Source: an uncultured Fibrobacterota bacterium (GTDB lineage Bacteria > Fibrobacterota > CAYVZU01). From it: 64,000 nt of DNA. Positions 15,073 through 47,185 of this stretch are shown here, in pieces; the stretch's first letter is position 1; each line of letters starts with the position of its first letter. The position numbers were made by a program, and so were the translations under genes. The notes beneath the pieces were generated by a model, which did not search any database, was not told the DNA's origin, and saw only the letters and a program-made list of their open reading frames with translations. The stretch is from positions 299 through 64,298 of the forward strand of contig CAYVZU010000008.1 in assembly GCA_964455935.1 (NCBI GenBank), given 5' to 3'.

Positions 15073-15248
15073 GGTGAATGGAAAGTGACTACTCAGGTCT
15101 CACGGAAGGACCTTGAAACCACCGAGATCACAGAGGGAAGACAAGAGAAAACACAGAGAGGAGTCTTTGCCGGCACAATCCTGCGCCAAAAAGATCTCAC
15201 TCTTCTCTGTGCTCTCCTTCTCCGACCTCGGTGTTCTCTGTGGTTGTG
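15073..15248. repeat. Degenerate copy of the CACAGAG / TTCACCAC repeat family
   Basis: Shares GGTGAATGG..CACAGAGGGAAGACAAGAG..CTCTGTGG blocks with the copies at 20835..20973 and 42523..42675. Confidence 0.4.
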
Positions 15249-18982: not shown

Positions 18983-19027
18983 CGAATCAAGGGCGAAAGG
19001 AAGGAATGCTCTTCCGTCAGCTTTTTT

Positions 19028-19232
19028 CCTCTCCCTTCGAAGGGAGAGGATTAAGGTGAGGGTGGAGAATCCCGAAGTTCCTGCCAGAGCAGGTCGTGCA
19101 CAGTTCCATTTCGTAATGCGTCCCAGATGATCCGTTCGGGAATCGTGGCAGCTTTGCGGAGCTTACGCGATGAGGATTGCTCTGTTCTGATGGAACCCCC
19201 TCACCCTACCCTCTCCCGCCGAAGGGTGAGGG
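19028..19232. repeat. Two inverted copies of the 37-bp module CCTCTCCCTTCRAWGGGAGAGG-NNN-AGGTGAGGGTG, flanking 133 bp (family 1, REP/MITE-like)
   Basis: Left copy at 19028..19064. The right copy, as reverse complement, is at 19196..19232. Both sit at convergent gene ends. Confidence 0.6.
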
Positions 19233-19268
19233 ATTTCCGGAGGAAAACGCGTTTTTCTCCAGCCCGAA

Positions 19269-20078
19269 TCACCCGTATCGTCCTTCGATGTAGTCGGCTG
19301 TTTTGGGGTTCTGGGGCTTGATGAAAAGCTCTTCTGTGCGGGTGTGTTCGATCACTTCGCCCAGGAGCATGAAAATGCACTCGTCGCTGGCGCGGCGGGC
19401 CTGGGCCATGTTGTGCGTTACGATCGCAATTGTGTAGTTCCCCCGCAGCTTAAACATCAATTCCTCAATGGCCCGCGTGCCTTCCACGTCCAGCGAGGAA
19501 CACGGCTCGTCCATCAAGATCACTTCGGGCTTCAACGGAAGCAGGCGCGCGATACAAAGTTTCTGCTGCTGTTCCAATTGAAGCGTCGTGGCCCTGGCGG
19601 AGAGACGATCCTTGACATCCTTCCAAAGTCCCACCTCGGTTAGCGCGGTTTCGACCGCTTCGTCAAGTTGGGATTTTTGCAGTTGCATGCGCGGCGTGTG
19701 GACGCGAAGCCCAAAAACAACATTCTCGTAAACCGAAATGGGCAAGGGATTGGGTCGCTGAAAGACCATACCCACGCATTTGCGCAGTTCGATCAGCGAA
19801 ACGTCGGCATCATAGATGTTCTTGCCCAGAATTTCGATAACGCCCGCAGTGCGAACGTAGCTATAGCGCTCATTGATTCGGTTGAAGCACCGGAGCAACG
19901 TGGTTTTGCCGCATCCACTGGGGCCGATTAGAGACGTAATCAGGCCGTGCTTGATTTGCACGCTTACATTCTTAAGCGCCTGGAATTTGCCATACCACAG
20001 GTTCAGGTCCCGGGTGATAATGCTGTGAGGGCGTGGGGCATTCATGAAGTTATCCAAAAATACCATTGACATATTCAT
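19269..20078 (-). CDS. pstB: Phosphate ABC transporter ATPase PstB paralog with a degenerate signature motif
   Basis: Walker A GPSGCGKTT, Q-loop GMVFQRPNP, Walker B ILMDEPCSSLD and H-loop VTHNMAQA are all canonical. The signature reads LQLEQQQKL instead of LSGGQ. Confidence 0.85.
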   Translation of the reverse strand: MNMSMVFLDNFMNAPRPHSIITRDLNLWYGKFQALKNVSVQIKHGLITSLIGPSGCGKTTLLRCFNRINERYSYVRTAGVIEILGKNIYDADVSLIELRKCVGMVFQRPNPLPISVYENVVFGLRVHTPRMQLQKSQLDEAVETALTEVGLWKDVKDRLSARATTLQLEQQQKLCIARLLPLKPEVILMDEPCSSLDVEGTRAIEELMFKLRGNYTIAIVTHNMAQARRASDECIFMLLGEVIEHTRTEELFIKPQNPKTADYIEGRYG

Positions 20079-20823
20079 ACGTTTCCCGTCGGGCGGGCTT
20101 GTTGGAAAAAATCACAGCCGTGCGGTCCAGTTCCACGATTTCCCCATTCCACATAAACATCGTGCGGTCGGCCAGCCGCCGGGCCTGGTGGGTAAGATTT
20201 GTCACCAGCAGAATGGTAATCTCTTTGCGGAGTTCTTTGAGAACATCCTCGATGCGCATGGTGGTAACCGGATCGATCGCGATGGAGAATTCGTCGAGGC
20301 ACAAAATTTCCGGCTGGTGCGACAAGGCCCGCGCAATGGTCAGACGCTGCTGCTGGCCGCCCGAAAGTGCCGTTCCCAGACTGTTCAGCCGATCTTTCAC
20401 CTCGTCCCACAGAGCGGCCTGTGTCAGGCATCGTTCCACAATTTCGTCAAGATCGTTTCTTCGTGTAAGGCCGGCGCTGCGGGGCGCGAAAGCGACATTG
20501 TCATAAATACTTAACGGCAGGCCCACGGGAAGCGGGGCGACCATGCCGATCTTGCGCCGCAGGGCATGCACATCTCTTACGCGGCGAATATCTTCACCAT
20601 CAACCCGGATTGTCCCCGACACCAGCGCATTGGCCGTGAAATCGATGGTCCGGTTGAGGCAGCGCAGTAGTGAGGTTTTTCCCGACTGGGCCGGCCCGAT
20701 AATACTGAAGATCTCGTTGCGGTTCACATCGAAGCTGATCCCGTGGATCGCCTCGATCCCGCCGTAACTGACCCGCAGATCACGGACCTCGATCGCCTTG
20801 GGCTCTGTCATGGCGTTTCCCAT
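20050..20823 (-). CDS. pstB: Phosphate ABC transporter ATPase PstB paralog with a canonical signature but degenerate Q/H-loops
   Basis: Signature LSGGQQQRL and Walker A GPAQSGKTS. The Q-loop glutamine is absent (GMVAPLP). Walker B region reads ILCLDEFSIAID. H-loop region reads VTNLTHQA. Confidence 0.85.
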   Translation of the reverse strand: MGNAMTEPKAIEVRDLRVSYGGIEAIHGISFDVNRNEIFSIIGPAQSGKTSLLRCLNRTIDFTANALVSGTIRVDGEDIRRVRDVHALRRKIGMVAPLPVGLPLSIYDNVAFAPRSAGLTRRNDLDEIVERCLTQAALWDEVKDRLNSLGTALSGGQQQRLTIARALSHQPEILCLDEFSIAIDPVTTMRIEDVLKELRKEITILLVTNLTHQARRLADRTMFMWNGEIVELDRTAVIFSNKPARRETYEYVNGIFG

Positions 20824-20834
20824 TTTGTCCGCTC

Positions 20835-20973
20835 TTCACCACAGAGACACAGAGGACACAGAGGACACAGAGAAGAAATATTCATGGCATTCCAATGCGA
20901 ATGACAGTATTTCCAATAATCCGCTTTATAATTTTGCTTTTCCATCTCTGTGATCTCCGTGCTCTGTGGTGAA
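20835..20973. repeat. MITE-like element with perfect 12-bp terminal inverted repeats TTCACCACAGAG / CTCTGTGGTGAA, inserted between pstA and pstB
   Basis: Terminal inverted repeats at 20835..20846 and 20962..20973. Internally GACACAGAG occurs 3 times in tandem. Confidence 0.6.
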
Positions 20974-20976
20974 TGG

Positions 20977-21888
20977 TCACCATTTCTTCCGGTTGCGCAG
21001 CCACACGCGCAGGGCAATGGCGCTGGCATTGACCAGCAGCACGGAACCCAGAAGGACAACGGCGGTCGCGTAGGGAATCGACTCCTTCACGTTGGGCACC
21101 TGTGTGGCCATTGTGTAGAGGTGCATGGAAAGCGCCATGCACTGCTCCGTTAGTTTATAGGGGAACAGATCCCCACGCTCGACCACCTTGAAAAAGACCG
21201 CGCCCGTAAACATGATGGGCGCGGTTTCGCCGGCAGCCCGGCTCACCTGGAGGATGATGCCGGTTAAGATTCCGCTGATCGAGTTAGGCAGAACAATGGC
21301 CTTGATTGTCTGCCAGCGCGTTGCCCCCACATTCCAGCATGCCTCGCGAAACGATTTGGGAACGGAAGCCAGCGCTTCGCGCGTGCTGGCGATGATGACC
21401 GGCAGAGTCATGATGGAAAGGGTGAGGGCGGCCGAGATAATGGAATAGCCAAAGCGCGCCGCATAGACAAAGGCTCCAAGCCCAAACAAAGCGTGTACAA
21501 TGCTGGGCACGCCCGCCAGGTTGATCACGGCGAGGTTGATGATGCGGTTGAACCAGTTGTCTTTGGCATACTCGTTCAGATAAATGGCAGCCATCACGCC
21601 CACGGGCGCCGAGACTGCAAGGGAGATTCCCACCAGGTATAAAGTTCCTACAAAGGCCGGCCAAATGCCTCCTTCGCGCATGCCGCTTCTGGGAATGTCG
21701 ATGAGAAACTCCAGATTCAGCGACGGCGCGGCGCGCACCAGGAGGTAGGCCACAATCGCGACCAGGGGAATCACCATCATCAGGGCCATTGCCCAGAAAA
21801 CCCATTTGGCAATGGACTGGGTCAGTTCCTTGCGGCCGCCATATGCGGTTTGCCGGAATCGAGTTACCGTATGGGTATTTTCGGCCAT
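20977..21888 (-). CDS. pstA: Phosphate ABC transporter permease PstA
   Basis: Start taken at MAENTH (21888). The ORF-track extension to 22209 overlaps pstC. EAA-like loop and PstA-like TM layout. Confidence 0.8.
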   Translation of the reverse strand: MAENTHTVTRFRQTAYGGRKELTQSIAKWVFWAMALMMVIPLVAIVAYLLVRAAPSLNLEFLIDIPRSGMREGGIWPAFVGTLYLVGISLAVSAPVGVMAAIYLNEYAKDNWFNRIINLAVINLAGVPSIVHALFGLGAFVYAARFGYSIISAALTLSIMTLPVIIASTREALASVPKSFREACWNVGATRWQTIKAIVLPNSISGILTGIILQVSRAAGETAPIMFTGAVFFKVVERGDLFPYKLTEQCMALSMHLYTMATQVPNVKESIPYATAVVLLGSVLLVNASAIALRVWLRNRKKW

Positions 21889-21893
21889 TAACT

Positions 21894-22826
21894 CTATTTT
21901 CTCCGGATGCCGCGAATGACGAAATCCGCGGTCAGGTTTACGGCAAAGGTAATGCAGAACAGCAGAACCCCGGTCAGAAACAGCACGCGGTAGTGATCGG
22001 ACCCGGCCGGCGCTTCGCCCAGTTCGGCGGCGATGTTGGCGGTGAGGGTTCGAATGGAATCGACAAGGCTGACCGGGATTGTGACTGCGTGGCCCGTTGT
22101 CATAAGCACGGCCATCGTCTCCCCCACGGCCCGGCCCACGCCCAGCAGCACAGCCGCCAGAAGCCCGTTTTTGGCCGCGGGCAGCAGCACGCGATAGATG
22201 GTCTGCCACTTCGTGCTTCCCATGGCCAGGGAGGCCTCGCGAAACGAATCGGGCACCGCCTTTAAGGCGTCCTCGCCGATGGAGACAATGATGGGCACGC
22301 TCATCAGGGCCAGAACGATCCCGCCGTTAAGCAGGTTCACGCCCACCGGGGCGCCGGTATATGCGGTAATCAGCTTGCTCATCACCGTGAGGCCGATGAA
22401 GCCCCAGACAACGCTGGGAATTGCGGCCAGCAGCTCAATGACGATCTTTAGCGTCTCCTTCGCCTTCGGGCTGCAGAATTCCGAAATGTAAATGGCGGCG
22501 CCCAGTCCAAACGGCACGGCAATGACCATGGCCAGGGCGGTCACGGCGACACTTCCGACCGTCAGGGCGAAAGTCCCGTAACGAACATGAACGGCCGAGG
22601 TTGGGTACCATTTGGTGCTGAAAAGAAATTCGAGCAGATGAAAATCCTCGCTGACCAGGACCGGCAATGCTTCGCGAAAGATGAAGATGAAAATGGCCAG
22701 GACAAAAATGATCGCACTGACGCCGCTGAGGCGGATCAGGCCTTCCAGCGCTTTCTCACCGGCCACAAGCCATGGGGAACGGGTGGGGCGTTTTCCGTGC
22801 GCGGGAATGGATTTTGATACCATCAT
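21894..22826 (-). CDS. pstC: Phosphate ABC transporter permease PstC
   Basis: Conserved SLAMGSTKWQT..LP block. The start overlaps the pstS stop (ATGATGA). Confidence 0.85.
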   Translation of the reverse strand: MMVSKSIPAHGKRPTRSPWLVAGEKALEGLIRLSGVSAIIFVLAIFIFIFREALPVLVSEDFHLLEFLFSTKWYPTSAVHVRYGTFALTVGSVAVTALAMVIAVPFGLGAAIYISEFCSPKAKETLKIVIELLAAIPSVVWGFIGLTVMSKLITAYTGAPVGVNLLNGGIVLALMSVPIIVSIGEDALKAVPDSFREASLAMGSTKWQTIYRVLLPAAKNGLLAAVLLGVGRAVGETMAVLMTTGHAVTIPVSLVDSIRTLTANIAAELGEAPAGSDHYRVLFLTGVLLFCITFAVNLTADFVIRGIRRK

Positions 22827-23744: not shown

Positions 23745-24869
23745 CTATCTGGTTTCCGTACCCAGAATTGCCTGCACAAGATCGACAATGTGGGAATTGA
23801 TGAACTGGAATGCGGCATCGTACGAGGCCCGTACTTTCTCGGACGGCCCCTGGACCAGGGAGGGGTCCTCGATGTTCCAATCGAGCAGGACGACTTTGCG
23901 CGGCGATTGCGGCAAAGCCTTGTGCACCTCTTTGGACAGGATAATGATGACCTGATAATATTCGAGATTGGGGATCTGGTAGATTGATTTTGGCGCGGTC
24001 CGTTCGAGATTGAATCCCTTCTCCTTCATATATTCTATCGTGCGGGCGTCCACCGGCTTGGGTTCCAGTCCCGCGCTGCTAAAAATGAAGCGGGGCTGGT
24101 TGAGACCGCTGGCAATGGCCTCGGCCATTTGGCCGCGGCAGGAATTGTGGTTGTCGACAAACAAGATTCGGAATGCCTGCGAGGCCGGGTGCTTGGCAAC
24201 CTCGCCGGTCACCATGTATATCGCTTCCATGCAGATGTTGCGGGCCTGGTCGGAAACCCGTTCAAATCGCCGGACCAGGGTCATGAGGGGATCGAACACA
24301 TCAAACGGGATTTTCTGCTCCTGGAACTCCCGCACAATGTTGTTGTTGAGCTTGTTTCGCATGGCATTGACAGCCTCCTCCACCCCGAAGGTGGCGCGGG
24401 CCAGGTCGGCATTTTGCTCGAAAAGAGACTGGGTCGCATCCTGGTACATGGTGATGGCGAGCTTGGCCAGCTCCAGGATTCCCTGCTTAATTTCGGCCGG
24501 GGCCCGGTTTTCGAGCCGCAGGATGTTGTGGGCGATACTTTCGGCATAATCGCCGACCCGTTCCAGCTCAAGATTAATGCGGATTGTGGTGTAAGCGAAA
24601 CGGAGCGGACGGGCAACCGGTTGTTGGCGCACAAGGAATTCGAGGCAGAGCCGGTCGATCTCCTTTTCCTTCTCGTTGATGTATTGGTCGCGCAGGATCA
24701 CGGCATAGGCGAGCTGCCGATTATTCTCAACAAGGGCCTTTACGCAGTCTTGCAGGGCCTTTTCGGCCAGCTTGGCCATTTCGGTCACCTGGTTGCGGAT
24801 TCTAGAGATATCACGCTCAAGGGATTCTTCCAAGTGCGTATGCATAGTCCTCCGTAGTCCCTCCAACAC
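23745..24869 (-). CDS. PhoU domain fused to an LMWP (ArsC / low-molecular-weight phosphatase)-like domain
   Basis: The N-terminal ~220 aa are PhoU-like repeats. The C-terminal domain ILFVDNHNSCRGQMAEAI aligns to the ArsC/LMW-PTP P-loop (C-x-G-N-x-C-R) with the nucleophile Cys replaced by Asp. A later DP motif (EDPS) is present. Confidence 0.75.
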   Translation of the reverse strand: MLEGLRRTMHTHLEESLERDISRIRNQVTEMAKLAEKALQDCVKALVENNRQLAYAVILRDQYINEKEKEIDRLCLEFLVRQQPVARPLRFAYTTIRINLELERVGDYAESIAHNILRLENRAPAEIKQGILELAKLAITMYQDATQSLFEQNADLARATFGVEEAVNAMRNKLNNNIVREFQEQKIPFDVFDPLMTLVRRFERVSDQARNICMEAIYMVTGEVAKHPASQAFRILFVDNHNSCRGQMAEAIASGLNQPRFIFSSAGLEPKPVDARTIEYMKEKGFNLERTAPKSIYQIPNLEYYQVIIILSKEVHKALPQSPRKVVLLDWNIEDPSLVQGPSEKVRASYDAAFQFINSHIVDLVQAILGTETR

Positions 24870-28279: not shown

Positions 28280-29797
28280 ATGAGAAAGATCCTTTCATTA
28301 TTCGTGGTTCTTGGCCTGACGGGGACTGTTCTGGCGCAGGCCCTGGACACCGCCGCGGCGGCAGACGAAAGCCGGACGGCCGCAAACCAAGAGCGGCTCA
28401 AGTCATTGGAGGGCAAAGCTGACGGTCTCAACAAGTCCTACTTGGAAACCAAATCCACCGTTGACAAGCTGGCAAAAATCAAGATTTCAGGCTACATTCA
28501 GACTCAAGCGCGCATGCCTACGGACTATGATGCGGCCACGGATTCAAGCCTCACCCATTCCGCCTGGGGCAAGTATCAGTACAAGGTGGGCGACTTCGCC
28601 GGCGGTGCCTTTTCCGATCGGGTTTCGAGCGCATTCGAAGTTCGTCGCGGCAGAGTTAAAATCGCCTATGAAACGGCATTGAGCATGGCTGTTGCGCAGC
28701 TCGATATTATCCCCTTTAGGTCCGCCAATTTTCTTCAAAGCGTGACCACAACAACAACGCGTGACACAATAGCCGACAGCCTGGGTGTCAACCATGTCGT
28801 AACCCGGTCCGCCACAACAACATCAACCAGCAGCGCGGCCCTCACCGGCGGCGGTGTTAGCGTGAAGGATATTTATCTGAGATTCACCGAGCGCTGGTAC
28901 AAGAGCTTCGCGCTTAAAATGGGTATTTTCGACAGGCCCTTTGGCTTTGAAATCGGCTACAGTTCCAGTTCCCGCGAATCGCCCGAGCGCTCCAGGGCCG
29001 AGCAGACCCTGTTCCCCGGCGAGCGCGATTTGGGCGTTTCACTTGAATACTTACCCGCGGACAACATGCCGGTTTGGGCTCAGCATTTGAATTTTAAGGG
29101 CGGCTTCTTTACTGGAAACGGGATTAACGTGGAAACCGACGGTAAGCGCGACTTCATTGGCCGGCTGGGCGTTACCTTCCCGTTTAATGAGCTGAACTTC
29201 GCGGTTGACGGTGGCGCCTCCCTCTACAATGGCTCGGTCCTTTCCCAGAACGATTCGGTTTTTGAAATCAGCGGCACATCCTTTGCGCCGGAAACCGGTA
29301 ATAAGAATGAATATATCGACCACCGGTACTTTGGCGGCGATGTGCAAATCTATTACGGAAATACCCCGGTCATTGGTGGAACCACGTTGCGCCTGGAAGG
29401 ATACGTAGGCTCCCAGCCCGGTTCCAAGACCAGCAATTCCTCTCCAAAATCCGACATGCCCAGCTCGGCCCAGATTTACAAACGCAATTTTCTGGGCGGC
29501 TATGTTATGCTGGTTCAAAACCTCGATCCCATTAAAAGCCAGCTTGCGCTCCGCTATGATTGGTTTGATCCGAATACGGAAATCGAGGGGACACAGGTCA
29601 GTTTTCAGGAAACCCAGACCACCGACCAGAGATACGGTACGCTGGGGATTGGCGAGGTTTATCACTGGGACGAGAATGTGAAATTCATCGCTTACCTCGA
29701 CAAGATTTCTAACGAGGAAATCACGGATAGCCGGGCGATCTTTACCGATGATGTTGAGGACAACGTTTTCACTTTCCGTGTCCAATACAAATTCTAA
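28280..29797 (+). CDS. Phosphate-selective porin O/P family outer-membrane protein
   Basis: Signal peptide, N-terminal coiled-coil, beta-rich body, and a C-terminal aromatic residue (..QYKF). Sits immediately upstream of pstS. Confidence 0.7.
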   Translation: MRKILSLFVVLGLTGTVLAQALDTAAAADESRTAANQERLKSLEGKADGLNKSYLETKSTVDKLAKIKISGYIQTQARMPTDYDAATDSSLTHSAWGKYQYKVGDFAGGAFSDRVSSAFEVRRGRVKIAYETALSMAVAQLDIIPFRSANFLQSVTTTTTRDTIADSLGVNHVVTRSATTTSTSSAALTGGGVSVKDIYLRFTERWYKSFALKMGIFDRPFGFEIGYSSSSRESPERSRAEQTLFPGERDLGVSLEYLPADNMPVWAQHLNFKGGFFTGNGINVETDGKRDFIGRLGVTFPFNELNFAVDGGASLYNGSVLSQNDSVFEISGTSFAPETGNKNEYIDHRYFGGDVQIYYGNTPVIGGTTLRLEGYVGSQPGSKTSNSSPKSDMPSSAQIYKRNFLGGYVMLVQNLDPIKSQLALRYDWFDPNTEIEGTQVSFQETQTTDQRYGTLGIGEVYHWDENVKFIAYLDKISNEEITDSRAIFTDDVEDNVFTFRVQYKF

Positions 29798-29851
29798 GAA
29801 AGACGGGTGGTTCATGCATAAGACATCCTATCACTCTTACAAGGAGATGTT

Positions 29852-30673
29852 ATGCGGAAAATTCTTGTCCTGCTGAGCATGGTCTTGTTGAGCGCACTGG
29901 CCTTCGGCAAGACCGTGATCACAGTAAAAGGCTCCGACACCATGGTTATCCTGGCCCAGCGCTGGGCCGAGATGTATATGGCCGCTCATCCCGATGTGAC
30001 GGTGCAGGTCACGGGTGGCGGATCGGGAACCGGAATTTCGGCCCTCATCAATGGCACTACGGATATCTGCAATGCTTCCCGACCCATGAAGGGAAGCGAA
30101 CGGGAGAAACTCAAACAGCGCTATAACTCTCTGGGCGTGGAAATTAAGGCGGCCAAGGACGGGCTTTCCGTCTATCTGAACGAAGACAATACAGTTACGG
30201 AACTAAGTTTGGCCCAGATTCGCAGCATCTACCTGGGCAGCATTACAAACTGGAAAGAGGTGGGCGGCAACGATGCCAAAATCATCCTTTATGGCCGTGA
30301 AAACAATTCAGGGACCTACGTTTATTTCCGGGATTTCGTCCTCAAGGGCCAGGACTTTTCGCCTCAGACCCAGACATTGCCGGGAACGGCCGCGGTCGTA
30401 AATGCGGTCGCAAAAGATAAAAACGGGATCGGCTATGGCGGCGCTGCTTATGCCAAGGGCATTCGCTTCGCCCAGGTCAAGGCTGACGAGAACAGCCCCG
30501 GATACGAGCCCAACGCCGAAAATGTCAAAAAGAACCTGTATCCGATCAGCCGGTATCTCTATCTGTACACCCGAAGCAGGCCTACGGGTGAAGTGAAGAA
30601 ATACATCGACTGGATCCTGAGCCCCGAAGGCCAATCCGTTGTCGAGAAGGTCGGATATTTCCCGGTGCGATAA
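29852..30673 (+). CDS. pstS: Phosphate-binding protein PstS (second system)
   Basis: Signal peptide. TVKGSDTM..GGGSGTG PBP motifs. Confidence 0.9.
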   Translation: MRKILVLLSMVLLSALAFGKTVITVKGSDTMVILAQRWAEMYMAAHPDVTVQVTGGGSGTGISALINGTTDICNASRPMKGSEREKLKQRYNSLGVEIKAAKDGLSVYLNEDNTVTELSLAQIRSIYLGSITNWKEVGGNDAKIILYGRENNSGTYVYFRDFVLKGQDFSPQTQTLPGTAAVVNAVAKDKNGIGYGGAAYAKGIRFAQVKADENSPGYEPNAENVKKNLYPISRYLYLYTRSRPTGEVKKYIDWILSPEGQSVVEKVGYFPVR

Positions 30674-30735
30674 TGGATCGAGTCTGTTCAGCGCCCCCTT
30701 CCCATCCTTCCCCCGCAGGGGGCAGGTGCTTAAGG

Positions 30736-30770
30736 AAGTCCCCCTACGGGGGATTTAGGGGGCGTTTTAC
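30736..30770 (+). terminator. GC hairpins between pstS and pstC (attenuator/terminator-like)
   Basis: CCCCCGCAGGGGG and CCCCCTACGGGGG stems, followed by ATTT. Confidence 0.4.
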
Positions 30771-30775
30771 CAGCG

Positions 30776-31795
30776 GTGGAAGCCAAGATGAATTTTCGTA
30801 GGCTCCGGCTTCGCATTGCCGAATTCATTGCCGAGAAGGCGATTTTCGCGATTGCGCTCTTCTCGCTGGCCTGTATTGTCCTGATCTTCGTGTTCGTGTT
30901 TCGCGAAGCCGCAACCCTGTTTGTTAATCGATCTCCTGCATCATCCCAAAACGCACTGGAGCAGCAGGAAACCTACGGTGACGAGGGTCTGGAAGATTCT
31001 CCCCCGCCTGATGAATTGGTCGAGAAGGAAAAGGCGATCCGCTTTCGGGACTTGTGGTGCACGATCTGGCAGCCCGTGTCGTTGCACCCGCGATACGGGC
31101 TTCTGCCGCTTCTGGCCGGCAGTCTGAAGGTGACGTTGATTGCGATTCTTTTCGGTGCGCCGATCGCGATTCTAGCCGCGCTCTTTACAATAGCCTTTGC
31201 GCCGCGCTGGTCCAAGGAAATTCTGAAGCCGGCGATCGAGATTTTGTCGGGGTTTCCCTCCGTGGTGATCGGCTTCTTTGCTCTCGTTGTCATGGCCTCC
31301 TTTCTCCAGAAGCTTTTTGGACTGGAGTACCGGCTAAACGCATTCGTAGGCGGGCTTGCGCTTTCGCTGGCCGTCATTCCCATCATCTACACGATCTCCG
31401 AGGATTCTCTTTCGGCCGTTCCCAAGTCTCTGAGCGAGGCGAGCCTTGCCCTGGGGGCAGCCAAGTGGGAAACCGTGCTGTTCGTGATGCTGCCCGCGGC
31501 CACGCCCGGCATTTTCGCCGCGATCCTCCTTGGCTTTGGCCGTGCCTTTGGCGAAACCATGATCGTGCTGATGGCCACGGGCAATGCAGCGCTTCTTTCG
31601 TTCGATGTACTGGAGCCTGTGCGCACCATGTCGGCCACCATTGGCGCGGAAATGGCCGAGGTGGTCTTTGGCGATACACATTACAGCGTTCTCTTTATGA
31701 TTGGCGCCATCCTATTTGTCATCTCCTTCGGACTCAATGCAATAGCCGAGGTGTTCGTGCGCCAGCGTTTGATGAAACGATTCAAAGGTGGATAA
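30776..31795 (+). CDS. pstC: Phosphate ABC transporter permease PstC
   Basis: GTG at 30776 (ATG at 30788). EAA-like loop SLALGAAKWETV. Confidence 0.9.
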   Translation: MEAKMNFRRLRLRIAEFIAEKAIFAIALFSLACIVLIFVFVFREAATLFVNRSPASSQNALEQQETYGDEGLEDSPPPDELVEKEKAIRFRDLWCTIWQPVSLHPRYGLLPLLAGSLKVTLIAILFGAPIAILAALFTIAFAPRWSKEILKPAIEILSGFPSVVIGFFALVVMASFLQKLFGLEYRLNAFVGGLALSLAVIPIIYTISEDSLSAVPKSLSEASLALGAAKWETVLFVMLPAATPGIFAAILLGFGRAFGETMIVLMATGNAALLSFDVLEPVRTMSATIGAEMAEVVFGDTHYSVLFMIGAILFVISFGLNAIAEVFVRQRLMKRFKGG

Positions 31796-32698
31796 GTGAG
31801 GTTTAGGAAATCATTGTACGGCGCCTCGGTCTTTGGAATCACGGCCTTTTGCGCGGGTATTATTTTGACCGCCCTGGTGATCATGATGACCACCATTGTC
31901 CTGGGCGGCTACAAGCATATCACATGGACATTCCTGACCGCGGCGCCTGCGGAGGGCATGACCGCCGGCGGGATCTTCCCGGCCATTGTGGGAACATTCT
32001 GGCTTGTACTGCTCATGTCCCTGGCCGGCGTGCCGGTGGGCACGGCCACAGCCCTTTACCTGTGCGAATACGTCCGCCAGCGATCGATCATCGTGCGCGC
32101 CATCCGTTTCGCCGTCAACACCCTGGCGGGAATCCCATCCATCGTTTTCGGGCTCTTTGGCCTGGGATTTTTTATCCAGTTCGTGGGAAAAAGCGCCGAT
32201 TCGCTGCTGTTGGGACCCGGCGTGGTGAAATGGGGACAGCCCAATCTGCTATGGGCCAGTCTCACCATGGCCGTCCTCACCCTGCCCGTGGTGATTGTCT
32301 CGGTGGAGGAGGCCATCAAGAACATGCCGCAAGAATATCGCGAGGCAAGCTTCGCCCTGGGCGCGACCAAGTGGCAGACAATTCGGCAGGTGGTCATTCC
32401 TCATTCCCTCACCGGTATGTTCACGGGCAGCATTCTGGCAATCAACAGAGGCGCAGGCGAGGTCGCTCCCATTCTCTTCACCGGAGTGGCCTACTTCCTT
32501 CCGCACCTTCCCTCGGATTTATCGGACCAGTTCATGCACCTGGGCTATCACGTCTATATCATGGCAACGCAATCAACCAACGTGGAGCAGACAATGGGAA
32601 TCCAGTACGCGACCACTCTCGTGCTGCTGTTTCTGGCCTTCACGCTGAACCTGGGGGCCATTTTGCTGCGGTATCGGATTCGGAGGAGGATGGCCTAG
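31796..32698 (+). CDS. pstA: Phosphate ABC transporter permease PstA
   Basis: GTG start directly after the pstC stop. SFALGATKWQTI motif. Confidence 0.9.
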   Translation: MRFRKSLYGASVFGITAFCAGIILTALVIMMTTIVLGGYKHITWTFLTAAPAEGMTAGGIFPAIVGTFWLVLLMSLAGVPVGTATALYLCEYVRQRSIIVRAIRFAVNTLAGIPSIVFGLFGLGFFIQFVGKSADSLLLGPGVVKWGQPNLLWASLTMAVLTLPVVIVSVEEAIKNMPQEYREASFALGATKWQTIRQVVIPHSLTGMFTGSILAINRGAGEVAPILFTGVAYFLPHLPSDLSDQFMHLGYHVYIMATQSTNVEQTMGIQYATTLVLLFLAFTLNLGAILLRYRIRRRMA

Positions 32699-32716
32699 CA
32701 TGGCCGGAACACCATA

Positions 32717-33475
32717 ATGAGCGCCTATAAGACAATAATCCGCAATTTGAACTTCTTTTACGGAAGCCAACAGGCTCTTTTCGACATCACCATGGATATT
32801 GAGCCGTTTCAGGTCACGTCGCTGATCGGACCTTCGGGGTGCGGCAAATCCACATTTCTGCGCACGCTCAACCGCATGAATGATCTAATCGAGAATACCC
32901 GGGTCACCGGCGAGGTGATCGTCGACGGCCAGGACATTTATGGCAAGAAGGTGGATGTCGTGGCCTTGCGAAAGAAGGTTGGAATGGTCTTTCAGAAATC
33001 AAACCCATTCCCAAAAACAATTTTCGACAATGTCGCCTTCGGCCCCAGAATTCACGGGATTCACAACACAAACCGGCTTAACGAAATCGTGGAGAGCTGC
33101 CTGCTCCGGTCGGGCCTTTGGGATGAGGTCAAAGATCGGCTGCACACAAGCGCACTGGGTCTCTCGGGCGGTCAGCAGCAGCGGTTGTGCATCGCGCGCG
33201 CCCTGGCCGTGGACCCGGCAATTTTGCTGATGGATGAACCCGCTTCGGCCCTTGACCCGCGCTCGACCGCTAAGATCGAGGATCTGATTGCCGAATTGCG
33301 GAAGAACTATACCATCATCATTGTCACGCACAACATGCAGCAGGCCTCGCGCGTTTCCGATATCACGGCCTTCTTCTACGAGGGCCGCCTCATTGAAATG
33401 GGGCCAACCCGAAAGATCTTCACGAAACCCGACATCAAACAAACCGAAGACTATATCACCGGAAGATTTGGATAA
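32717..33475 (+). CDS. pstB: Phosphate ABC transporter ATPase PstB (fully canonical)
   Basis: Walker [10 protein letters not shown], signature LSGGQQQRL, Walker [12 protein letters not shown] and H-loop VTHNMQQA are all canonical. Confidence 0.95.
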
Positions 33476-33488
33476 GCGAGGAACCACC

Positions 33489-34169
33489 ATGGCAGTCCAC
33501 ATGCGCCGCGAGATCGACAAACTTAATCAGCAACTGCTTGAGCTTGGTACGCGGGTCGAAGAGGCGGTTGTGGCGGCCATTGCCGCCGTGGAGGAACAGG
33601 ACGTCGAGTCCGCCCGGCAGGTGATCCAAAACGACGAGCGAATCGATCGCAGTGAAATTGAGGTGGAAGAGGAATGCCTCAAGATTCTTGCCCTTTATCA
33701 GCCCGTGGCCATTGATCTCCGGTTCATTGTCGCGGTACTCAAGATCAACGGCGATTTGGAGAGGATTGGCGATCTGGCCGTTAATATCGCCGAACGGGCC
33801 ATGCTCCTGGCGTCCAAAGATGCGCCTTCCGTCGACTTCGATTTCCATCGAATGTCCCAGGAAGCCCTGGCCATGCTCAAGCAAAGCCTGGACGCACTGG
33901 TCAACATGGATGCCAACTTGGCCTATCGAGTCCTGAAATCCGATGATGAAATTGATTCTTTAAACCGCCAGAATTACGACAAAGTCATGTACGCTATCAA
34001 CAGCAATGCCCAGCACGCCAAGATCATGATCCATTACCTGAGCATTTCCCGTTTTCTCGAACGCCTGGCGGACCATGCCACCAATATTGCGGAAGACGTT
34101 ATCTATCTGGCGACCGGCGAGATCGTGCGCCATGCCGGAGAACAGGACAGGCCGACTTCTAACCCTTGA
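33489..34169 (+). CDS. phoU: Phosphate signalling regulator PhoU
   Basis: Start taken at MAVHMRREI (33489). Two PhoU repeats. Confidence 0.9.
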   Translation: MAVHMRREIDKLNQQLLELGTRVEEAVVAAIAAVEEQDVESARQVIQNDERIDRSEIEVEEECLKILALYQPVAIDLRFIVAVLKINGDLERIGDLAVNIAERAMLLASKDAPSVDFDFHRMSQEALAMLKQSLDALVNMDANLAYRVLKSDDEIDSLNRQNYDKVMYAINSNAQHAKIMIHYLSISRFLERLADHATNIAEDVIYLATGEIVRHAGEQDRPTSNP

Positions 34170-34269
34170 GCCGCCCAAGACCAGCCATTGAACAGGGCCT
34201 GGCATCTGGTTTGCTTATCTGGTTTGATTAATAGTGGCCGCGCATCCGCCAATCATTTATGGAGGAATC

Positions 34270-34809
34270 ATGCCTATCAAAACAGAGCAGGAAGAAAAGA
34301 TCAGCACGCAAGCGATGATGGAAGTGTACACGAAACTTGGAACCCCTGGCGCTCCCCATCAGTTTCTCGCCAGTTCGGCTGGAAGCTGGAAAATCACAGT
34401 CAAATCATGGATGGAGCCCGGCATGCCTCCAACGGAAAGCACTGGAACCAGCGAACTGAAGATGATCATGGGCGGCCGGTTTCTTCAGGAAGAGTTCACC
34501 GGTGAAATGATGGGGAAGAAGTTCACCGGCTTGGGGATTACAGGATACGATAATCATACGAAGAAATACGTGTCGACCTGGATCGACTCCATGGGGACCG
34601 CCATGCTCTTTTTCGAAGGATTCACCGACCCGGAAAACAGGGTTCTCACCCTGAAGAGCCGCTATGACGACCCATTCAAGGGTTCCATGACCTGGCGTTC
34701 GGTGACCACACACGTGGATGAAAACACTTGCCTTGTTGAAATGTGCAGCGTTGATCGGAGCGGCAAGGAAGAGAAGATGATGGAGATGTCCTACGTGCGC
34801 AGGCGCTAG
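34270..34809 (+). CDS. DUF1579-like protein
   Basis: ATG at 34270 with a GGAGGA RBS. The alternative start is 34234. Family assignment is from memory. Confidence 0.45.
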   Translation: MPIKTEQEEKISTQAMMEVYTKLGTPGAPHQFLASSAGSWKITVKSWMEPGMPPTESTGTSELKMIMGGRFLQEEFTGEMMGKKFTGLGITGYDNHTKKYVSTWIDSMGTAMLFFEGFTDPENRVLTLKSRYDDPFKGSMTWRSVTTHVDENTCLVEMCSVDRSGKEEKMMEMSYVRRR

Positions 34810-36996: not shown

Positions 36997-37065
36997 TTGG
37001 TTTACCTCCGGTTTTGGGGCATTACGGAGGCAGAACCGGAATGGTTACCTCACAATAACGCTCTC

Positions 37066-37190
37066 CCACATGCCTACGAGGTTAGCTGACGGGCTCGGGC
37101 TTGGAAGTGCCCTATCCTTGACGGAATACGCCCCAAGAGTTGGGTCCCCCGCATCCATGGTTTTCCCATGGATTTCGGCTACATCATTTG
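37066..37190 (-). promoter_or_regulatory. c-di-AMP riboswitch candidate (ydaO/kimA class) in the kup leader
   Basis: The minus-strand RNA contains GAUGCGGGGGACCC, UUGGGGCG..AUUCC and CCCGAGCCCGUCAGCUAACCUCGUAGGC. The last matches the conserved 3' block of the B. subtilis ydaO aptamer as I recall it. Confidence 0.6.
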
Positions 37191-39177: not shown

Positions 39178-39296
39178 CCCCTCACCTCCGCCCTCCGCGG
39201 TAGATCTGCTACGGAGGACGGGCTGGCCCTCTCCCACCCAGTGGCGAGGGGACTCTTTCCTCTCCCTTCAATGGGAGAGGGTTCAGGTGAGGGTGT
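39178..39296. repeat. Family-1 GC-rich repeat element bounded by CCCTCACCT / AGGTGAGGG inverted repeats
   Basis: Contains the same CCTCTCCCTTCAATGGGAGAGG-GTT-CAGGTGAGGGTG module found at 19028..19064. Confidence 0.6.
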
Positions 39297-40563: not shown

Positions 40564-42524
40564 TGCGGGGCACTCTCCAGAATTGACAGCGGAATAACAA
40601 GGGTCATACGCGTGCCTTTACCGATTTGTGATTCCATTTTCAGTTGGCCGCCAAACAGCCGCAATCTCTCCTCAATGCTGAAAAGCCCCATCTCCGCCGC
40701 ACCGTATGGACGTTTTCGAACCGCCTCAACATCGAAGCCAACGCCCCGGTCTTCAACCGTGATCGCAATTCGATCCTTTTCCAGGTTACCGGAGATGACC
40801 ACTTCTCTTGTTTTTGCATGCTTGATAATATTGAAAAGCAACTCTCGCATGAGTTGCACAATCAGAATCTGGTCTACACCCCGTACCGCCGCCAGGTCCT
40901 TTGAAAGATCGATGCAAATCACAAGACCATAGTGTTCTTCCATGTGCCGGGCAAGCCAACGAAGCGCGGCATCCAGGCCTTCGTTCTTCAGAATGGGCGG
41001 ATTCAATTCGACGGCCAGAGATTTGGTGGTGGCCAGGGCTTTTTGAATCGACTTCCGGAGCATTTCAACATCACGGGCGATTTCCTCCATATCCGCCCCC
41101 GAACGGCAATGGATGGAATCGGTCAGCATCTTTGCTCCAAAAAGGTTCTGCTGAAGATCTTCATGCAGAATCCGTGAAAAGCGCTGGCGTTCCCGTTGCT
41201 CGGCAATTGTCAATTCCTTCGAAAGATCGCGGACCTGCCGCGTGCGCTCCCGTATCAGGTCCTCCAGATGATCGTTCACCGCCTTCAATTGATCTTTGCT
41301 TCGGCGTAAATCTTCCTCACTCTGCTTTTGCTGTGTAACATTGCTTGCCGTGCCAAACCATTCGACAATTTCGCCCTTTTCATTCATAATGGGAACAGCG
41401 CGCGAGAATGTCCAACCCAAAGACCCGTCCTTTTGCAAAACCCGGTGCTCCAAGGCAAAGACGCGTTTTTCCTGGATTGCCGCGTTGATGGCCGCATCCA
41501 CGTACGACTGGTCATCGGGGTGAATGTATTCCCGCCGCCAATCGCGGCTGGGGCGGGTGGTATCAGCAAGAAAATCCTGCCCGCTAAGCTGACACATTTC
41601 GCTCCAGTCCGGGGTCATCCGGTACAGGACATCCGAACTGGCCAATACGATTGCGCGAAAGCGTTCTTCGCTCTTCTGCAGGGCTCGCTCGACCGCTCTG
41701 CGTTCCGTGATATCCCGCAAAATGCTCTGGAATATTCGTTTGCCTCTGTGCTCAAAAAGAGAGCCGGTCATTTCAATCACCCTTTGCTCGCCGTCCTTTC
41801 GGATGTGAATGTGCTCATCCGTCACGCTCCCATTGAGTCTGGTCCCTCGAATAAATCGGCCCACCCGCTCCAAATCCTCGGGCCGGTGAATTTGCTCATA
41901 CGAAAGCCCCTGCAGCTCGGTACGGGAATAGCCAAGCTGGCGCGCAGCCGATGCATTGGCATCAATGATTCGGCCGGATTCGGTATCGTAAAAGATTATG
42001 GCATCATTGGCGTACTCAAAAAGGCTGCGGTAGCGCTCCTCGCTTTCACGCGATTCCTGTTCCGCTTTGCGAAGATCAGAGGTCCGCTCTCTTAATTCCG
42101 CGTTGCGCGCATCCACCTGTCCCTGAAGCAGACCCTGGTAGGCGAGCAATTGGGCTCTGGCGCGGTGCATGGTCTTTGCAACGAAGCAGATAAGGGTGCT
42201 GCTGAAAACGAAGATGATCAGTGAAAGAAAATCGAGCGGATCGGTGATCGCAAAACTGAATGCAGGATCAAGAAAAAAGAAATCAACAGCCACTGCGGAA
42301 AGCGCGGTAGCCAGCATTCCCGGCCAAAACCCGCCGAAAATGGCCGCAATTGTCACGGCGGGAAAAAACGTGATAAAAGCGGCTCGCATTCCCACTTCGG
42401 CCAGCAGCACCTTGCGCACCACAATGGCAAGAATGACAAGAAGAACTGCCGCCGCATAGCGCAATGCGGTGTTCCTGGCTCGGCATATTGCATTCAATCC
42501 GTTCATGGTGTTCTGTTGAACCAT
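40560..42524 (-). CDS. Sensor histidine kinase: DUF4118-like TM region, tandem PAS, HisKA_3 plus HATPase_c
   Basis: H-box ERERQRFSRILHEDLQQ (HisKA_3/NarX-like). ATGA overlap with the receiver gene. Confidence 0.85.
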   Translation of the reverse strand: MVQQNTMNGLNAICRARNTALRYAAAVLLVILAIVVRKVLLAEVGMRAAFITFFPAVTIAAIFGGFWPGMLATALSAVAVDFFFLDPAFSFAITDPLDFLSLIIFVFSSTLICFVAKTMHRARAQLLAYQGLLQGQVDARNAELRERTSDLRKAEQESRESEERYRSLFEYANDAIIFYDTESGRIIDANASAARQLGYSRTELQGLSYEQIHRPEDLERVGRFIRGTRLNGSVTDEHIHIRKDGEQRVIEMTGSLFEHRGKRIFQSILRDITERRAVERALQKSEERFRAIVLASSDVLYRMTPDWSEMCQLSGQDFLADTTRPSRDWRREYIHPDDQSYVDAAINAAIQEKRVFALEHRVLQKDGSLGWTFSRAVPIMNEKGEIVEWFGTASNVTQQKQSEEDLRRSKDQLKAVNDHLEDLIRERTRQVRDLSKELTIAEQRERQRFSRILHEDLQQNLFGAKMLTDSIHCRSGADMEEIARDVEMLRKSIQKALATTKSLAVELNPPILKNEGLDAALRWLARHMEEHYGLVICIDLSKDLAAVRGVDQILIVQLMRELLFNIIKHAKTREVVISGNLEKDRIAITVEDRGVGFDVEAVRKRPYGAAEMGLFSIEERLRLFGGQLKMESQIGKGTRMTLVIPLSILESAPQ

Positions 42525-42675
42525 TCACCACGGTGGCACAGAGGGCACTGAGAAAGATAAGAGTCCAAAGGCAGCGCAAAGAAAAAGCGTTTCTGGCGCG
42601 CACCTGCGCCGAAAAACTTATCTCCTCTTTGGATTCTTTTCTGATCTCCGTGTTCTCCGAGTCGCTGTGGTGAAT
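42523..42675. repeat. MITE-like element of the TTCACCAC..GTGGTGAA family
   Basis: Terminal ATTCACCAC(42523..42531) and GTGGTGAAT(42667..42675). The internal GATCTCCGTGTTCT block is shared with the copy at 20835..20973. Confidence 0.55.
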
Positions 42676-47049: not shown

Positions 47050-47185
47050 CTTCGCCCGTCTTCCGTAGCAGTGCTACTGCGGAGGGCGGACGCCACCCCT
47101 CCTGGCAGAAGGGGCGCTAAAACGCACAGCATCTCCGAAAAATGCCCCTCCTGCCAAGAGGGGTGCCCGCGGGGCGGGGTGGTCC
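47050..47185. repeat. Diverged family-1 GC-rich hairpin repeat between convergent genes
   Basis: CCGTAGCAGTGCTACTGCGGAGG, CCCCTCCTGGCAGAAGGGG and CCCCTCCTGCCAAGAGGGG blocks resemble the 39178..39296 element. Confidence 0.4.

Follow-up and report, generated by a model that had tools for sequence, protein, structure and literature searches.

A hairpin element between pstA and pstB and its probable relationship to longer elements carrying a GxxExxY gene

What is the 139-bp sequence with inverted-repeat ends that lies between two cistrons of a phosphate transporter operon, and how did it come to be there? An earlier note on the 64,000-nt stretch of DNA that we analysed (the window) took it for a non-autonomous transposon (MITE), one of three related copies in the window, and named a structured regulatory RNA as the alternative. 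Our conclusion is that it is probably a gene-less miniature derivative of a widespread, hairpin-bounded selfish family, the full-length form of which carries a gene for a GxxExxY protein.

The insert in the pst operon

The element (copy 1; Table 1) begins and ends with TTCACCACAGAG...CTCTGTGGTGAA, a perfect 12-bp inverted repeat, as the earlier note had stated. The left arm holds four CACAGAG heptamers, and the GATCTCCGTGCTCT block belongs to the right arm. The two arms are imperfect reverse complements that pair over ~30 bp, and the transcribed (-) strand has a predicted folding energy of -55.5 kcal/mol (z = -5.7), a stability reached by none of 200 shuffled sequences. This left-arm architecture matches that of 139 distinct elements in other genomes. 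Across the window CACAGAG occurs 15 times against 4.6 expected, a count that was reached in none of 100 shuffles.

That copy 1 fills the gap between pstA and pstB is borne out by its position, which is 3 nt from the pstA stop codon (TGA, 20977-20979, - strand) and either 11 nt from the first ATG of pstB or 23 nt from the ATG used in database entry P0001. This entry is 100% identical to the pstB product over 253 aa, and its start fits the N-termini of orthologues better. The true start of pstA is probably near the pstC stop codon, not where the listed ORF begins. Pfam matches give the order of the operon on the - strand as PhoU-LMWPc, pstS, pstC, pstA, pstB and a second ATPase. The best relatives of the pstB protein are 86% identical, so that no close relative is on record, and the nearest named ones come from Verrucomicrobiae / Verrucomicrobiota.

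Four orthologous pst operons (L131-L134) have the same gene order, and their pstA proteins all terminate in the same residues as the pstA protein of the window. Their pstA and pstB genes lie 4, 22, 13 and 4 nt apart, and none of them has the element. Because these operons have 4-22 nt at the site and no element, we conclude that copy 1 is an insertion. The second, paralogous pst operon of the window likewise lacks the insert. Conservation of the insert in all relatives, which in the earlier note would have refuted mobility, is not what the four orthologous operons show. No target-sequence duplication is visible around copy 1 on comparison with the empty orthologous sites. It was also observed that the order of the operon, with the PhoU fusion first and the tandem ATPases last, recurs in the four relatives.

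Both a promoter-like site and a terminator-like site were looked for between 20600 and 21200, and neither was found. Past the hairpin the transcribed strand reads GAGCGGACAAAAUGGG, without a U-tract. Copy 1 was therefore rejected as an intrinsic (bidirectional) terminator, in which a G+C-rich hairpin would be combined with a U-tract. A-rich and T-rich flanks are present at many other copies of the family.

Table 1. Coordinates of the hairpin elements, the pst genes and further features of the window
Feature	Coordinates	Strand	Remarks
Hairpin element copy 1, miniature, gene-less	20835..20973	none	Perfect 12-bp ends, arms of ~30 bp; in the pstA-pstB spacer
Copy 1, left arm	20835..20872		TTCAC, then CACAGAG x4 with 1-2 nt spacers; read from the sequence
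Copy 1, centre (loop)	20873..20942		A+T-rich, variable; no recognisable coding remnant
Copy 1, right arm	20943..20973		CTCTGTG-AT-CTCCGTG-CTCTGTG-GTGAA; predicted to pair with the left arm
Miniature element copy 2	42524..42674	none	Between two PAS/DUF4118 histidine-kinase genes (- strand)
Degenerate copy 3	15116..15245	none	Ends AACCAC...GTGGTT; downstream of an M48 peptidase gene
pstA, ORF as listed	20977..22209	-	Pfam BPD_transp_1; C-terminus ...RKKW* common to orthologues
pstB	20050..20823	-	Pfam ABC_tran; first ATG 20823, P0001 starts at second ATG 20811
5' gene of the pst operon	23745-24869	-	PhoU domain fused to a low-molecular-weight phosphotyrosine phosphatase domain
3' end of the pst operon	19269-20078	-	Two tandem ABC ATPase genes
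Paralogous pst-type operon	28280-34809	+	pstA-pstB gap 18 nt, no insert; pstB region 70% complementary to that of the first operon (157 nt)
Second inverted-repeat element family	19025-19246		Arms CCTCTCCCTTCGAAGGGAGAGG..GGTGAGGG; takes up the spacer of a convergent gene pair
Further copy of the CCTCTCCC...GGTGAGGG arm	39256-39295		Intergenic
Third repeat type (TCCGCCCTCCGCGGTAGATCTGCTACGGAGGACGGGC)	39187-39223		Intergenic hairpin module
Third repeat type, inverted copy	47054-47090		89% complementary to the preceding; intergenic hairpin module
c-di-AMP riboswitch (ydaO/yuaA type)	37056-37190	-	Rfam RF00379, 87.8 bits, E = 4e-19

Two further copies lie in the window, which gives sizes of 139, 151 and 130 bp for copies 1, 2 and 3. 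Copy 2 shares the ends of copy 1 (ATTCACCAC...GTGGTGAAT) and abuts a histidine-kinase start codon, as reported, but its terminal 12-mers (TTCACCACGGTG and TTCACCACAGCG) are an imperfect match and its span differs by a nucleotide at either end from that first given. It lies 38 nt past the stop codon of the upstream kinase gene, its complementarity runs ~6 nt beyond the core ends, and it is predicted to fold into an almost unbroken hairpin, with -73.7 kcal/mol for the + strand and -60.8 for the - strand. Copy 3 is likewise a real hairpin, although the bounds first assigned to it (15073-15248) were wrong. Copies 1 and 2 have the family ends and heptamers in full, and the ends of copy 3 are degenerate. 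The centre of copy 1 has no significant similarity to that of any other copy, and none of the centres in the window matches the GxxExxY profile or Pfam. Since the three centres are unrelated, there is no sign of recent amplification within the window.

A family of hairpins behind stop codons

We scanned a species-representative genome collection, with one genome per species, for the pattern TTCACCACRGNG-N(100-130)-CNCYGTGGTGAAT. At least 119 loci match, against ~2 estimated by chance, and by record title they come from about 12 phyla. The matches listed comprise 47 from Acidobacteriota, 20 each from Planctomycetota and Pseudomonadota, 10 from Gemmatimonadota, 7 from Bacteroidota (Bacteroides isolates among them), 5 from Chloroflexota, 4 from 'Delta'-type groups, and one each from Verrucomicrobiota, Nitrospirota, Desantisbacteria, Chlamydiota, a Thermoplasmatota bin and an unclassified source; some of these assignments may be wrong, given that many loci stem from metagenome bins, which may be contaminated. 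Isolate genomes of Bacteroides and complete chromosomes of 7.5-8 Mb are among the matches listed. The family is thus not restricted to the source genome. It accounts for intergenic repeats that recur near-identically in soil and gut bacteria of many phyla; such repeats produce false short ORFs and can lead to errors in assembly and annotation. In addition, complete miniature copies were seen on eleven IMG/VR contigs classed as viral (L120-L130), which are either phage or mis-classified host fragments.

The miniature copies have a common plan, in which TTCAC is followed by 2-4 CACRGAG heptamers with 1-2 nt spacers, a centre of 60-90 nt and the mirror image of the first arm, for a total of 125-155 bp; taken over all miniature copies, the centre measures 60-150 nt. 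The centres are unrelated between copies; homologous ones were found only between a few copies in one genome (as at L031) or between close relatives. The arms, however, covary. At arm position 9 the 139 distinct elements have the pairs A-T (75), G-C (44), A-C (11) and G-T (9), and the spacer positions likewise show compensatory change, none of which is required by the scan pattern. In some Terriglobia / Acidobacteriota the miniature centres are mosaics containing AATCAAC/AATCAAA short tandem repeats (L007, L016, L026, L053, L077), and some of these carry a further module, CCCTTCGACTCCGCTCAGGGCAGG, inside the arms, a make-up that resembles BIME-type repeats.

These data bear on the possibility that the host keeps copy 1 as a regulatory RNA of its pst operon, whether an attenuator, a processing site or a small RNA, that tunes the ratio of PstSCA to PstB. 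The hairpin is indeed very stable (see the z-score above), it sits exactly at the cistron boundary, and read-through is possible given that no terminator-like site is present. Yet the element is missing from the four orthologous operons and the paralogous one, and the same arms lie beside unrelated genes in many phyla. Selection at the level of RNA is not supported either, because G.U pairs are not favoured over A.C on the transcribed strand (90 versus 82), and of 55 cases the fold is the more stable on the sense strand in 28 and on the opposite strand in 27, which is no bias. A search of Rfam gave no match at the gathering threshold, and the best permissive hit, to the model of a plant microRNA precursor, scored 23.7 bits where the threshold is 99. 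On account of the empty operons, the absence of a G.U bias and the lack of an Rfam match, we regard a structured regulatory RNA as highly improbable.

The position of the copies relative to host genes follows a rule. The miniature copies lie between 55 tandem, 20 convergent and 5 divergent gene pairs, counts that are close to those expected if every gene 3' end offered a single site. The TTCACC end mostly lies 0-11 nt past the stop codon of the long ORF that runs towards it, with a mode of 5-9 nt. The rule is kept in long spacers (e.g. L039, L056 and L074) and on both sides of convergent pairs, the two distances being 7 and 8 nt at L004 and 8 and 7 nt at L021. The window follows it in part, with copy 1 at 3 nt and copy 2 at 38 nt. 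In some subfamilies (L215, L031) the inverted repeat reaches ~12 nt beyond TTCACC, and therefore the true ends may be still nearer to the stop codon. Stop-proximal copies in long spacers are not easily explained by selection alone, and the 0-11 nt rule may reflect either a targeting mechanism or a strong functional constraint. As a separate observation, some CGCAGAG-type variants, such as that at L138 (about 841), have the left end TTAACC in place of TTCACC, and the TAA within it is the stop codon of the upstream host gene.

No sign of a duplicated or preferred target sequence was found. Direct repeats of 1-10 nt at offsets from -6 to +6 are at chance level in 128 elements, so that the target-site duplications which the earlier note proposed to look for are lacking at every offset in this set, as they are at copy 1. 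The flanks have neither a conserved target motif nor a conserved tetra- or pentanucleotide; they do have a tract rich in purines (-10..-4) and slightly raised complementarity, of 3.2 of 9 positions against 2.55 +/- 0.11. A direct repeat, TGGTGA, near copy 1 suggested GGTGA as a target, but this candidate was dropped because GGTGA occurs 10 times in the proximal and 7 times in the distal flanks and is not clearly enriched. Nor is any protein family enriched beside the listed loci, the most frequent being present at no more than 9 of the at least 119.

Longer elements and the GxxExxY protein

In some genomes the same arms enclose a gene. These full-length elements measure 433-652 bp and consist of a left arm, made up of (T)TCACC and 2-4 tandem heptamers (CACRGAG, or CGCAGAG / CACGAAG in sister subfamilies), a GxxExxY gene (~125 aa) whose PD-(D/E)XK nuclease motif is intact, and a reverse-complement right arm ending in GGTGA(A). 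At L028 (1185-1759) a 575-bp element with the arms of the miniature copies encodes such a protein of ~125 aa, and at L049 the arms surround an ORF sited between two host genes. The enclosed ORFs match TIGR04256 (E = 4e-45) and PF13366 PDDEXK_3 (E = 1e-43) and nothing else. In the ~1 Mb of loci fetched, the sole longer element with these ends encodes a GxxExxY protein and not a transposase. The 64-kb window itself contains no GxxExxY gene.

The association was also seen from the side of the gene. We fetched 80 metagenomic loci encoding GxxExxY relatives, 69 of which had enough flanking sequence, and at least 47 of these 69 genes have significant flanking inverted repeats, nearly all of the TCACC-heptamer type. 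Among the 80 loci the arm heptamers are CACRGAG in 32, CGCNGAG in 22 and CACGAAG-like in 5, and in the remaining 21 there are no arms or they are lost at a contig end. The gene is co-directional with its upstream host neighbour in 16 of 19 cases and with its downstream neighbour in 21 of 24. In 10 of 17 cases the left end of the full-length element touches or overlaps the stop codon of the upstream gene; these cases are not independent, as several of the loci are orthologous.

Several loci contain full-length and miniature forms together. Within 20 kb of a 6.26-Mb contig (L215) there are one full-length copy and five miniatures, all with nearly the same arms, and the centres of three of the five miniatures are homologous; an autonomous element accompanied by non-autonomous derivatives would be expected to give such a pattern. 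At L069 the first ~35 nt and the last ~35 nt of a neighbouring GxxExxY pseudogene make up the centre of a miniature copy. Because this centre matches both ends of the gene, we conclude that this miniature copy arose by internal deletion. The gene at L097 is flanked by two identical miniature copies. Around it (1050-1760), the gene and both copies are all nested in a further, outer pair of arm fragments, and at L145, L148 and L199 arrays of several hairpins adjoin a GxxExxY gene; such nested and tandem arrangements suggest that elements insert into or beside one another.

The main rival to a mobile element that encodes its own nuclease is that the hairpins came first, having spread by other means, and that the GxxExxY gene is a homing-endonuclease-like invader of their centres which uses the arms as homology. 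A profile search of the miniature centres returned nothing at E < 1, so that most of them have no detectable remnant of the gene, as an invasion would predict. Arm types are interspersed across the protein family, with a mean protein identity of 60.2% within types and 59.6% between them, and the nested and adjacent copies at L097 and L215 can also be read in this way. However, the L069 centre is clearly an internally deleted gene, no other mobilising gene is enriched near the at least 119 loci, and the nearest neighbour of a protein usually has the same arm type (42 of 54), from which we conclude that arm type tracks relatedness at short range only. We therefore consider invasion of pre-existing hairpins to be unlikely, and return to the reading in which the gene-carrying form is the full-length element.

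The protein has the features of a nuclease. E28, D68, E78 and K80 are invariant in a four-sequence alignment (A1), and the equivalent PD-(D/E)XK residues are at least 90% conserved in one of 52 sequences (A2). An AlphaFold model (pLDDT 92.7) has as its best PDB matches, by Foldseek, Cas4, lambda exonuclease, the Holliday-junction resolvase Hjc, I-Bth0305I (3r3p) and tRNA-splicing endonucleases; these matches are weak (best E = 6e-3) and therefore indicate only a generic nuclease fold. Sequence search found no solved relative. The family comprises 34,920 cluster representatives at 50% identity (E <= 1e-3), and some members of 260-295 aa (P0241-P0257 and others) have two profile matches and are thus tandem two-domain fusions. 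PDDEXK_3 has been described as a family of unknown function that passed repeatedly between bacterial divisions and archaea (Steczkiewicz et al. 2012, PMC3424549), which fits the spread of the arms across phyla. Otherwise the literature on GxxExxY, TIGR04256, PDDEXK_3 and DUF559 held passing mentions only, and that on the end and arm sequences gave unrelated primer matches or nothing. Our search, which covered neither subscription journals nor curated family descriptions, found no paper linking the GxxExxY family to flanking inverted repeats. For the GxxExxY proteins, which form one of the largest prokaryotic families still uncharacterised, the arms offer a concrete setting that can be put to the test, the prediction being that their substrate is the conserved heptamer-repeat arms that flank the gene.

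How much of the original MITE reading survives? Copy 1 is an inserted, miniature, non-coding sequence with terminal inverted repeats, and the longer partner that the earlier note hoped to find exists, in that gene-carrying elements have the same terminal inverted repeats (L028, L049, L215 and 32 of the 80 metagenomic genes). Empty orthologous operons show presence and absence at one site, and interiors are shared between copies at L215 and L031, though not among the three copies of the window. On the other hand, there is no target-site duplication, the gene in the partner (TIGR04256/PF13366) is no recognised transposase, and the family is not genome-local. A classical MITE, mobilised by the DDE transposase of an insertion sequence with TTCACCACRGAG ends, would likewise be of 125-155 bp, have terminal inverted repeats and lie between genes, but this reading conflicts with the absence of a 1-10 bp duplication at offsets from -6 to +6 and with the GxxExxY gene found, in the ~1 Mb of loci fetched, where a transposase would be expected, and we find it scarcely credible.

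A second way of supplying mobility from elsewhere is that of REP/REPIN-type extragenic palindromes, in which an unlinked HUH transposase (RAYT, IS200/IS605-like) acts on single-stranded hairpins. Here too we have a hairpin that is extragenic, lies at gene 3' ends and leaves no target-site duplication, and the similar counts of G.T and A.C mismatches fit a constraint at the level of DNA. Against this, the arms are runs of tandem heptamers instead of a self-complementary unit with a GTAG head, the conserved flanking tetra- or pentanucleotide is absent, Y1-transposase-like families are not enriched near the listed loci, and the protein that is physically inside the arms is of the PD-(D/E)XK type. 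This explanation is, in our judgement, very unlikely.

A possible mechanism and known systems

In the mechanism that we propose for the hairpin family with its GxxExxY gene, the arms would be the sites through which the predicted nuclease, supplied in trans, promotes copying of the element. Copying might proceed as in homing, through the repair of a double-strand break, or else depend on the cutting of an extruded hairpin that is recognised by its structure. Copy 1, as a miniature, would then be a passive derivative. It is important to note that gene and arms could also be linked because the gene is cargo, or because it has invaded hairpins that were already there.

As to the operon, the hairpin of ~-55 kcal/mol in the pst mRNA would place the stop codon of pstA near the ribosome-binding site of pstB, with the ribosome-binding region of pstB staying intact downstream of it. 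An insert with no U-tract and no promoter-like site would be tolerated inside an operon, and the juxtaposition of the pstA stop and the pstB start by the stem would explain this tolerance. The ~30-bp stem is also a plausible processing site for RNase III (or another enzyme), which may shift the relative stability of the pstSCA and pstB segments; by analogy with the excision of 23S rRNA intervening sequences, cleavage could split the one segment from the other. These effects on pst expression are inference only. The locus demonstrates that an essential operon, here that of the high-affinity phosphate transporter, can carry a structured insert of 139 nt between cistrons, and it offers a natural system in which to study the part that hairpins play in maintaining or altering translational coupling and the processing of mRNA.

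More tentatively, and with less than even confidence, we suggest that GxxExxY proteins are the nucleases of an unrecognised class of hairpin-bounded mobile elements found throughout prokaryotes, which insert next to stop codons without target-site duplication, are tolerated on account of their stem, give rise to non-autonomous miniatures and have parallels in other PD-(D/E)XK systems. If so, the long terminal stem would loop the insert out of the mRNA, keeping the stop codon and the next start together, or RNase III would remove it. Other PD-(D/E)XK families might then have parallel systems with arm sequences of their own, such as that of DUF559 at 19025-19246.

The interior of this second element of the window contains, on the - strand, ...SRKLRKAATIPERIIWDALRNG..., a truncated N-terminus of DUF559 (PF04480), although the Pfam match (E = 0.003) is below the family cut-off. 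DUF559 is a family that we take to be Vsr-like and of PD-(D/E)XK fold. The element suggests a parallel system of arms plus small nuclease with a different arm sequence.

We compared the family with five known systems. Like integron attC sites, the miniature copies form imperfect inverted repeats (60-150 nt) in which the ends are conserved and the centres vary, and they lie directly past the stops of co-directional ORFs. Unlike attC, they have no RYYYAAC/GTTRRRY core sites and no integrase nearby, and their neighbours in the window are pstA and pstB, not cassettes. We rejected copy 1 as an attC site on the same ground, as its ends are TTCACCAC and GTGGTGAA where R'' (RYYYAAC) and R' (GTTRRRY) would be expected.

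REP/REPIN sequences resemble the present family in being extragenic palindromes at gene 3' ends, also inside operons, with no target-site duplication, and the REP sequence between malE and malF stabilises the upstream mRNA. They differ in having a GTAG-headed self-complementary unit that is species-specific, whereas the arms described here have no such unit and are common to many phyla, and the protein associated with these arms is of a different fold from RAYT and is encoded inside them. When copy 1 was tried as a REP/REPIN, no GT[AG]G head and palindrome were found, the arms being CACRGAG arrays that are not self-complementary.

With free-standing PD-(D/E)XK homing endonucleases, such as I-Bth0305I and I-Ssp6803I, the GxxExxY protein shares the nuclease fold (the 3r3p match) and a selfish-looking, multi-copy distribution. 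It differs in having no intron or intein context, in its size of ~125 aa without a separate DNA-binding domain, and in its tandem-heptamer inverted repeats, and homing is putative in its case.

A long terminal stem around a small gene, with a patchy and promiscuous distribution, is also found in the intervening sequences of 23S rRNA. Those with a small ORF are known from Leptospira and Coxiella and encode four-helix-bundle proteins (PF05635), and excision from the host transcript by RNase III would render the intervening sequence harmless. The elements that we describe differ in lying between protein-coding genes and in encoding a different protein family, and RNase III cleavage is putative in their case.

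The Correia (NEMIS) MITEs of Neisseria share with the miniature copies a size of 100-160 bp, terminal inverted repeats, the lack of a gene, an intergenic and co-transcribed position and long hairpins in mRNA, and in both families longer relatives carry a gene. Correia hairpins are substrates of RNase III. Correia elements have a TA target-site duplication and a DDE transposase, whereas here there is no duplication and the partner has a PD-(D/E)XK fold. The hairpin family of the pst operon is further set apart from them by arms that are conserved across phyla, by centres that are unrelated, and by the position of its copies immediately past stop codons.
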